This document shows, piece after piece, positions 34,782-36,260 of a stretch of 64,000 nt of DNA. The notes beneath the pieces are model-generated. The model saw nothing but the letters and a program-made list of their open reading frames with translations. It was not told the origin of the DNA and did not search any database. The stretch lies in NCBI RefSeq assembly GCF_965641715.1, contig NZ_OZ282453.1. One strand, 5' to 3'. The position numbers and the translations under genes are program-made. Source of the stretch: Escherichia coli. Lineage in GTDB: Bacteria > Pseudomonadota > Gammaproteobacteria > Enterobacterales > Enterobacteriaceae. Every line of letters starts with the position of its first letter. The first letter of the stretch is position 1.

Positions 34782-34856
34782 TGGAGCGGGTAGCGGGAAT
34801 CGAACCCGCATCATCAGCTTGGAAGGCTGAGGTAATAGCCATTATACGATACCCGC
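34782..34856 (-). tRNA. Phage-encoded tRNA, predicted tRNA-Gly (anticodon UCC), CCA end encoded
   Basis: Cloverleaf folded by hand: acceptor GCGGGTA/TACCCGC, anticodon stem TCAGC/GCTGA with loop CTTCCAA, T-arm GCGGG-TTCGATT-CCCGC, 3' CCA. Confidence 0.8.
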
Positions 34857-35273
34857 ATACTATGCGGTCTTCAGTAATCACACGAATTACCGTGAAAGCC
34901 AGCACTGGTCTTTCCGACGGTAGTAACGCCCCTGTGAACACCAAAATAACCGTCTTCCAGACTGACGAGAATACTAACGACATTTTTTCAGATATCAAAA
35001 ATATATTTTGTTTTTAGTTTTTAATATATGTATGCATCTGTATCAGAAACATACAATTTATATCATTACTAAATTAAAAACATTTCTCTGACGTCTGATT
35101 AAAACGTTCCTGTTCCAGTTCCGCGCCAATCACACATGGTCATTGCGTTTTACCAGTCCATCGCCACTATCAGGCTGACCAGGGGACGCCCCACCCGAAC
35201 TGCTGAGAATGCCAGGCACACAAAGAATAATGCCCGCCAAAGCGTTCCTGCATACAATGACTGCAAAATTCAG

Positions 35274-36017
35274 TTATTCTTGAGCGGAGCCAGAACTCAT
35301 CTCACTGAATGCAGCCATCCTGTAACCTTCCGGGGTGACCCCAAAATAACGCCTGAATACACTGATAAAATAAGATGTATTATTATAGCCACACTGCACA
35401 GCGATTCTGTTGATGGCACAGCTATATTGATGCAACAGCATTGCTGCCATTCTCATTCTCTCCGTAAGCAACAACTCACTGAAACATGTGCCTTCTTCTT
35501 TCAGTCTTTTTTTTAACAAACTTTCACTCATACATAACCGTGATGACACATCTCGCAGAGTCCAGTTTGCTGCAATGTCTGTATGAAACAACGCACCAAG
35601 CCTGCCGCTGATAGTACTGATACACGCGGTCATAAACGACGAAAACATTTTATCTGATGAAAAAAACGCCAGACACGAAAAGGAAAGCATTTCCGCTAAA
35701 TTGTCCGTATGAATCTTTTCCTCATAAAGATAATCAATCAGGATGCCCATCAATTCTGGCCTGGGAAAACTCATGCAAAGATATCGTGGCATTTTCCGGA
35801 CTAAAACAACATCCTGTTTTACCCCACTACGCAACAGGTAACGGCTAATTGTCGATTCACTGAGACTTATACGCCGAAAACATTCAGAAAAGGGCAATAA
35901 CGGTCCAGCCCCTCCCCTGACAAGAAGTGCACTACCACTTTCCAGAGAGAGTACTTTTCCTTCGAAGAGCACAACAAACGGGGAATGAACAAAAATAACA
36001 GAACAGGCCTCATTCAT
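35274..36017 (-). CDS. AraC-family transcriptional regulator (AppY/EnvY-like prophage moron)
   Basis: C-terminal AraC HTH (...NRIAVQCGYNNTSYFISVFRRYFGVTPEGY) resembling AppY; AT-rich; sits between Q and the lysis genes. Start may be 36077 or the internal Met at 36017. Confidence 0.8.
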   Translation of the reverse strand: MNEACSVIFVHSPFVVLFEGKVLSLESGSALLVRGGAGPLLPFSECFRRISLSESTISRYLLRSGVKQDVVLVRKMPRYLCMSFPRPELMGILIDYLYEEKIHTDNLAEMLSFSCLAFFSSDKMFSSFMTACISTISGRLGALFHTDIAANWTLRDVSSRLCMSESLLKKRLKEEGTCFSELLLTERMRMAAMLLHQYSCAINRIAVQCGYNNTSYFISVFRRYFGVTPEGYRMAAFSEMSSGSAQE

Positions 36018-36260
36018 ATCAATATCCCTGACATTACTGGTCGCAAGATAAGTATATATCACTTTACAAAAATGCAAGCCGTGAGCCCCGAATTCACAAC
36101 CACCAGCGCGTTTAACACCCTGTGCCGTTTTTCAGGCATAAAAAAACCCGCATAAAGCGGGCTCTTTCAGGTGTCCATGTCTGCTATTCGCCTCGCGATA
36201 CAGCTTTGCGAAGCGTACCAGAATTGAAGCAGTTTATTGGTAAAAATGCAATAACTTTTT

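Follow-up and report, generated by a model that had tools for sequence, protein, structure and literature searches.

An AraC-like regulator gene and a tRNA-Gly gene behind a tR′-like terminator in a lambdoid prophage of Escherichia coli

The prophage AraC-like regulators PsrA/B, PatE, and AppY rewire acid resistance and virulence in Escherichia coli. PsrA and PsrB act on the host genes gadE/yhiF and hdeA, with psrB described in reviews as an AraC-like gene whose product activates both targets and represses type III secretion (PMC10877973, PMC8565820), while PatE and AppY converge on the AR2 acid-resistance circuit (PMC10877973, PMC10057817). In lambda and Shiga toxin (Stx) phages, the late promoter PR′ is constitutive and its transcription is terminated in lysogens (PMC7547250). 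Here, we describe a 64,000-nt stretch of E. coli DNA (assembly GCF_965641715.1, contig NZ_OZ282453.1; hereafter, the window) that holds a lambdoid prophage with its late region on the minus strand and carries a gene of the same regulator clade, together with a transfer RNA (tRNA) gene, between a Q-like gene and the holin genes. We propose, with a probability of roughly 0.55, that the regulator and the tRNA form a two-part cargo behind the terminator tR′, the regulator being a host-acting moron with expression that would be driven by its own promoter in the lysogen and by Q-dependent read-through upon induction.

The regulator gene, its upstream signals, and the tRNA unit

Read along the minus strand, the locus comprises a NinB-like gene (37090-37701), a DUF1364/HNH gene (36800-37090), the DUF1133 Q-like gene (36261-36803), a terminator, the AraC-family gene (35274-36017), tRNA-Gly (34782-34856), terminators T1 to T3, the holin genes, and an endolysin gene, with the Nu1 and terminase large-subunit genes 3′ of the lysis genes. 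A preliminary description of this DNA had placed an AraC-family gene and a tRNA between a Q-like gene and the holin, and open reading frame (ORF) calls, ARAGORN, and Pfam/PHROG matches found all of them there on the minus strand. It had also called the regulator gene AT-rich and counted two terminators. The region is indeed AT-rich, although to a moderate degree (GC content of 0.37-0.44 across 34800-36300 vs 0.52-0.57 in the late genes), and the interval holds not two but four good intrinsic terminators, one after the Q-like gene and three before the holin. The corresponding prophage locus of the swine strain PEC41 is 99.6% identical, and its RefSeq annotation contains the same gene calls.

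The program-made ORF of the regulator spans 35274-36077, but we place the real start at the ATG at 36017 (stop at 35274), because the RefSeq annotation of PEC41 agrees and the family N-terminus reads M-x-x-x-C-S-V-I. Two other candidates, a TTG at 36077 and the GTG used in the W13-16 annotation, were rejected, since the homologues all start at a conserved MNEACSV. The resulting 247-aa protein is an AraC/XylS family member, with a C-terminal domain of ~100 aa that contains two helix-turn-helix (HTH) motifs; PF12833 and PF00165 both occur in the identical protein cluster P0001, and the GadX DNA-binding domain (3mkl) is matched with E = 5e-24. Profile matches and sequence identities place it in the GadW/YdeO/AppY/PatE/PsrB clade (PHROG 1450; positions 11-248 of 254, E = 8e-58), a membership that includes the N-terminal domain and the CSVI start, the latter common to all full-length relatives. 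Specifically, the NCBIfam YdeO profile was matched over its full length (positions 2-228 of 253, E = 7e-42) at 143.7 bits, short of the equivalog cutoff of 348 bits, and the GadX profile reached 104 bits against a cutoff of 500.

By BLASTP, the closest full-length relatives were ECs0287 of strain Sakai (39% identity), which is probably PatE as judged from its position in Sp1 (OI-8), and an HTH gene in OI-57 of EDL933 (38%), which is probably psrB (z2104) as judged from its place in OI-57 and not from a locus-tag match. GadW (36%), YdeO (35%), and AppY (31%, full length) followed, while GadX aligned over its C-terminal half only (39%) and EnvY over the C-terminal DNA-binding half only. The label "AppY/EnvY-like" given earlier is thus right at the level of the clade, but the nearest members are ECs0287, the probable PsrB, GadW, and YdeO, and EnvY resembles the regulator in its DNA-binding half alone. 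When 1.84 billion representatives were scanned exhaustively with HMMER, just nine proteins came up at E ≤ 1e-30, so that the full-length clade is narrow. Both recognition helices (SESLLKKRLKEEG and SYFISVFRRYFG) are typical of the family and do not fix the target.

An AlphaFold (AF2) model of the regulator is confident (predicted local distance difference test score [pLDDT], 89.4). Its C-terminal domain superposes on the GadX DNA-binding domain 3mkl with a root mean square deviation of 1.1-1.3 Å at 44% identity, and CsvR, Rns, and ToxT are the best matches to the chain as a whole (Foldseek E-values of 2e-12 to 1e-7, ~250 aligned columns). The model confidently predicts an intact two-domain AraC/XylS protein, with an N-terminal domain of the Rns/CsvR/ToxT type and a GadX-like DNA-binding domain. 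The gene is under moderate purifying selection, with ratios of nonsynonymous to synonymous substitution (dN/dS) of 0.28-0.37 against the 85-87% alleles.

Directly upstream of the start codon lies a leader (36018-36077) that contains a promoter-like TTGCAT (36077-36072)-15 nt-TATACT (36056-36051) pair and, as a ribosome-binding site, AGGGA. This stretch hardly varies between alleles that are only 76-88% identical in coding sequence.

The product of the Q-like gene (180 aa) is a full-length DUF1133 protein (Pfam E = 3e-102) that matched PHROG 753, "anti-termination protein Q-like," with E = 1e-76, a label that is itself an annotation. Matches to Pfam Phage_antitermQ (PF06530; E = 8e-5) and to the Q21 structures 6p18/6jnx (E = 0.008, two short segments aligned) were weak. 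The gene sits 3′ of the NinB-like and DUF1364 genes, which is the place of Q in lambdoid phages, and on profile matches and position we regard its product as Q-like, i.e., a putative Q-equivalent.

Between this gene and the regulator, a TTGCAT-17-TTCAAT pair (36223-36251, minus strand) is a weak candidate for PR′, assigned by its position in analogy with lambda PR′ and by its conservation in PEC41, A19, NWU_3, and OI-57 of EDL933. Promoter scans of 36500-36130 returned nothing convincing; the candidate went unscored because its −10 hexamer lacks the canonical A at position 2. It is followed by a tR′-like intrinsic terminator (36140-36165), a hairpin GAGCCCGC-TTTAT-GCGGGTT with a T7 run (−18.2 kcal/mol), which was missed by a consensus terminator scan and confirmed by folding. 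The 86-nt leader that ends in this terminator is structured (z = −3.8), and the layout of promoter motif pair, leader, and terminator resembles PR′-tR′ of lambda and Stx phages.

The PR′-tR′ leader (36140-36215, minus strand) forms two hairpins and is nearly identical in OI-57. The equivalent terminated transcript of Stx phages is a regulatory small RNA (sRNA), StxS (PMC7547250), and by analogy the leader in the window might also act in trans. Rfam matches to it were at noise level (isrK-like, E = 0.77; Trp-leader-like, E = 0.34).

The second cargo gene is a tRNA-Gly(UCC) (ARAGORN; Rfam tRNA, 65.6 bits), a prophage copy of host glyT that equals K-12 glyT at 73 of 75 positions. It has a canonical cloverleaf, the anticodon, an intact acceptor stem, and an encoded CCA. 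Both differences fall in one acceptor-stem pair, where they compensate each other (C6:G67 to U6:A67), and the U6:A67 variant is present in all prophage copies. We rejected the idea that the gene is an attachment-site or host glyT operon remnant, because its flanks show no relation to the glyT operon and because the unit turns up repeatedly in phage late regions. The spacer between the regulator gene and the tRNA is AT-rich and contains a promoter-like TTGATA-16-TAGTAT site (34971-34998, minus strand) that is kept in strain WAT; judging from this consensus match, the tRNA probably has its own promoter. In WAT, the whole unit (AT-rich promoter region, tRNA, trailer, and T1) follows a methyltransferase gene and not an AraC gene, and tRNA-Gly also occurs within arrays (Ile-Thr-Gly and Thr-Gly) in O139:H1 P15-25 and in an LT-IIb prophage. 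GGA and GGG together make up 37% of the Gly codons in the late genes vs 30% in flanking host genes.

Between the tRNA and T1, a structured trailer of ~260 nt (34520-34781) folds well around a long inverted repeat (minimum free energy of −90.7 kcal/mol, z = −4.4, for 34495-34781) and is ~82% conserved in the distinct prophages of WAT and SerU-LTIIb. The stretch may serve as an sRNA or be a processed trailer. Across the cargo region, Rfam returned nothing significant besides the tRNA.

The Q-holin slot across phages

A survey of the regulator lineage in IMG/VR yielded 45 loci at 76-100% identity. In 43 of these 45, the regulator gene is preceded by a Q-type gene at a distance of 0.8-2.2 kb and followed by holins, with five Q types and three lysis-cassette types represented. 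In all 18 distinct upstream contexts, the ATG is preceded, at a distance of 110-140 nt, by a hairpin followed by a T-run. The sequence of this hairpin differs between contexts; in the most divergent one (L064), the stem is wholly different and the pairing is kept. In comparison, the final ~60-105 nt before the ATG are nearly invariant, including TTGCAT-15-TATACT and AGGGA. This combination of a terminator and an invariant leader fits a dual expression of the regulator, from its own promoter and upon induction. The regulator ORF is intact in 43 of the 45 loci.

The preliminary description had assigned the cargo to the late-transcript position of lambdoid phages, the slot in which Stx phages carry stx. 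Both parts of that assignment agree with the survey, in which the terminator is always upstream, and with the Stx phages P27 (stx2e) and phiSTEC1575 (stx2k), which share a homologous T3-holin module with the window. The gene order is Q, GIY-YIG, TrmB, methyltransferase, tRNA-Ile, tRNA-Arg, stx2e, and holins in P27, and Q, TrmB, AraC-like gene, tRNA-Met/Arg/Arg, stx2k, and holins in phiSTEC1575-Stx2k. At least four lineages of the regulator clade, only 36-40% identical, occupy the Q-holin slot, namely, the window lineage, the PsrB/Stx2k type, a Jouyvirus type (Q, Blc, YbgA, AraC-like gene, and holin S), and L092. The PatE-like lineage is placed beyond the tail-fibre genes, outside this slot.

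Mosaic junctions define three separable modules. The regulator module begins just 3′ of tR′ and continues for ~50 nt beyond the stop codon, the tRNA module (35226-34477) is absent in the bat strain A19, and the T2/T3-holin module is common to the Stx2k phage and P27. In loci with the 100% allele, the tRNA-Gly is always 421 nt downstream, and this allele is found behind three Q types. Because an allele at least 99% identical stands behind three different Q types, the cassette has probably been exchanged and spread recently.

The cassette is present in 22 of 5,426 complete E. coli genomes, 21 of them from swine (ETEC-labelled [enterotoxigenic E. coli], O139:H1, and feral pig/wild boar isolates), counts that are uncorrected for clonality. 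Given this near confinement to swine isolates, the allele may aid gastric-acid survival or colonisation in pigs. An allele at 86-87% identity is commoner (cluster P0003, 241 members; ~40 IMG/VR loci).

A second cassette recurs in the slot, consisting of a small TrmB-like ORF, a 237-aa PsrB-type AraC-like gene, and a variable tRNA array (Ile/Thr/Gly, Ile/Arg, or Met/Arg/Arg); in the Stx2k phage, this cassette immediately precedes stx2k. Instances were seen at 3249-4578 of L014 (O139:H1 P15-25), 29941-31268 of L101 (EDL933), and 2787-4992 of L003.

On the holin side, T1 (34493-34519, −12.4 kcal/mol) ends the tRNA unit; it is kept in WAT with altered loop and stem bases and is gone together with the tRNA in A19. 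T2 (34455-34477, −13.8 kcal/mol) is kept in the tRNA-less A19 locus and in SerU-LTIIb. T3 (34343-34364, −10.8 kcal/mol) ends ~20 nt before the holin start codon, and homology with the lysis modules of the Stx2k phage and P27 begins there. All three are on the minus strand, as are the genes that follow, i.e., a holin (33934-34323, PHROG 198), a second holin (33666-33944, PHROG 217), and a muramidase-type endolysin (33119-33673; PHROG 315, NCBIfam holin-associated N-acetylmuramidase). The PEC41 endolysin differs in being an M15 peptidase. Between the endolysin and Nu1 (31842-33118, ~1.3 kb, GC content of 0.42-0.51), we found no family-matching ORF and no obvious Rz/Rz1 spanin genes; the PEC41 annotation of this interval lists two small hypothetical genes only.

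Several features lie on the other side of the Q-like gene. A hok/sok-type toxin-antitoxin locus (38173-38497, minus strand) was recognized by an Rfam sok match (113 bits, E = 8e-26) overlapping a hokD-like ORF, and PEC41 has an annotated hokD at the matching place. Just downstream of hok, 38083-38164 (minus strand) gave a sub-threshold match to isrK, an sRNA of the Salmonella Gifsy-1 prophage (30.5 bits vs a gathering threshold of 50, E = 0.0013), and may encode a related prophage sRNA. Further away, between hok/sok and the replication/nin genes, two overlapping ORFs of 310 aa and 184 aa (38755-40238, plus strand; GC content of 0.31-0.35) run opposite to the surrounding prophage genes. Neither matched PADLOC or NCBIfam. 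At a comparable position, NWU_3 carries a HEPN-domain gene and A19 carries a DUF6414 gene, and the site may be a variable hotspot with an undescribed defence or moron pair.

Proposed expression and target of the regulator

Under the two-part cargo model, transcripts from the late promoter would stop at tR′ in the lysogen, the regulator would be made from its own conserved promoter and leader, and T1 to T3 would keep cargo transcription out of the holin genes. Upon induction, Q-modified RNA polymerase would read through tR′, the regulator gene, the tRNA, and T1 to T3 into the lysis and morphogenesis genes; both cargo genes would be part of the late transcript, because the polymerase must cross them to reach the lysis genes. 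By analogy with characterised members of the clade, the regulator would bind and activate AT-rich host promoters, the gadE/hdeA acid-resistance circuit being its likeliest target, while the tRNA-Gly would supplement the decoding of GGA and GGG, codons that are modestly enriched in the late genes.

Several observations weigh against this model. The assignment of PR′ is weak, with a non-canonical −10 (TTCAAT), and the promoter of the regulator is a consensus match only, with a short spacer of 15 nt. For the tRNA, the argument from codon usage is a weak one (~1.4-fold). Since identity to the known regulators is only 31-39% and the equivalog cutoffs are far off, the target regulon could differ. 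The dN/dS ratio of ~0.3 indicates moderate constraint only, and some sister-lineage copies are disrupted by frameshifts or truncations (P0006 and P0008-P0011; L063 and L064), although the majority are intact. Finally, conservation of the slot could come from recombination between conserved flanks and not from selection for coupling to the late transcript.

This last point leads to a possible but doubtful alternative, in which the slot is merely permissive for recombination, the regulator works solely from its own promoter in lysogens, and its inclusion in the late transcript is meaningless. Modular exchange is favored by flanks that are common to many phages (PR′-tR′ and the sequence just after it on one side, T2/T3 and the holin on the other), with the sequence just 3′ of tR′ recurring in OI-57 ahead of a different gene. 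Other phages carry unrelated cargo in the slot (methyltransferases, TerB, an esterase, and stx), and ECs0287 and AppY, of the same clade, occupy another cargo site. Recombination alone, however, fits less well with the occupation of the slot by at least four divergent lineages and with the window-lineage gene always being directly behind the terminator. Moreover, if lysis depends on PR′, the structure of the locus leaves induced transcription no way to bypass the gene. It is very unlikely, in our estimate, that the regulator acts on the phage itself (e.g., on the expression of the tRNA, a toxin, or lysis genes, or on the induction decision) and not on host regulons. Such a role would agree with its place as the first gene of the late transcript and, in several lineages, with the position of clade genes just before tRNAs, stx2k, or holins. 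Yet the characterised clade members (PsrA/B, PatE, AppY, GadW, GadX, and YdeO) all regulate host gadE/AR2 genes (PMC10877973, PMC10057817), and the downstream neighbors vary (tRNA-Gly, tRNA-Arg, or a holin directly) and therefore offer no constant adjacent phage target.

A similarly low probability goes to the view that the gene, as silent or decaying cargo, has no function at present. The frameshifted and truncated copies in related prophages would be expected of decay, as would the rarity of the allele (22 of 5,426 genomes, 21 of them from swine and possibly clonal), and the AT-rich region may be silenced by H-NS, judging from its GC content. Against this stand the ORF that is intact in 43 of 45 loci, the dN/dS of 0.28-0.37, the nearly invariant leader, and the allele of at least 99% identity behind three Q types, which implies recent spread.

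A stronger version of the two-part cargo model, which we consider rather unlikely, holds that the place directly behind tR′ is itself selected, with clade regulators being the first gene of a Q-antiterminated transcript that wires induction to a host regulon. If this were true, induction would give a burst of a host-reprogramming activator that could raise acid resistance and repress type III secretion or motility; alternatively, the regulator could tune the expression of the adjacent tRNA or toxin. As the clade is found repeatedly in the Stx slot, probably including PsrB, coupling to induction, as with Shiga toxin, is directly testable.

Comparison with known systems

The closest arrangement is in OI-57 of EDL933, where the order is a DUF1133 Q gene, PR′-tR′, a small ORF, the 237-aa HTH gene (probable psrB), tRNA-Ile, tRNA-Arg, more cargo, and a holin. 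The Q gene is 74% identical to that of the window and the PR′-tR′ sequence is the same, and the HTH gene is 92% identical to the gene of the Stx2k phage and 38% identical to the window regulator. The probable PsrB thus shares the clade, the CSVI motif, and the slot next to tRNAs with the window regulator, but differs in being far below orthology and in being preceded by a small TrmB-like ORF and followed by tRNA-Ile/Arg (or Met/Arg/Arg, or Ile/Thr/Gly). According to reviews, psrA (z1789) belongs to OI-50. However, in OI-50/Sp6 of the current RefSeq EDL933 and Sakai sequences, tblastn detected no AraC-like gene, whether in the interval from Q to the lysis genes or in the rest of the island, and differences between strains or assemblies, or an error in mapping, may explain this; PsrA was left out of our comparison with known regulators.

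The probable PatE and AppY (K-12 DLP12) belong to the same clade as the window regulator; both are prophage morons and switch on acid-resistance genes (PMC10877973, PMC10057817). They differ in location: instead of the Q-holin slot, they occupy a site near the prophage end, past the tail-fibre genes, and in 25 IMG/VR loci an IS3 remnant comes after the ECs0287 type. The chromosomal GadW, YdeO, and GadX of K-12 resemble the regulator in sequence and in the GadX-type DNA-binding fold, with the regulator remaining below the equivalog cutoffs. Rns/CsvR of ETEC and ToxT of Vibrio cholerae, the best full-length structural matches, share the two-domain architecture but differ at 17-22% identity and a template modeling (TM) score of ~0.42 to the regulator model, the latter because the domain orientation differs.

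Among the Stx phages (P27, phiSTEC1575-Stx2k, and the 933W type), the order of Q, terminator, methyltransferase or AraC-like cargo, tRNAs, toxin, and holins parallels that of the window, and the holin module with T3 is homologous, whereas the window has no toxin gene and its cargo is the regulator and one tRNA only. Literature searches did not find an AraC regulator explicitly described in the Q-S slot. Since the probable psrB shares the slot next to tRNAs, the arrangement is that of a class of prophage regulators known before; the novelty lies in the window lineage itself and in recognizing explicitly that its place behind tR′ is fixed.

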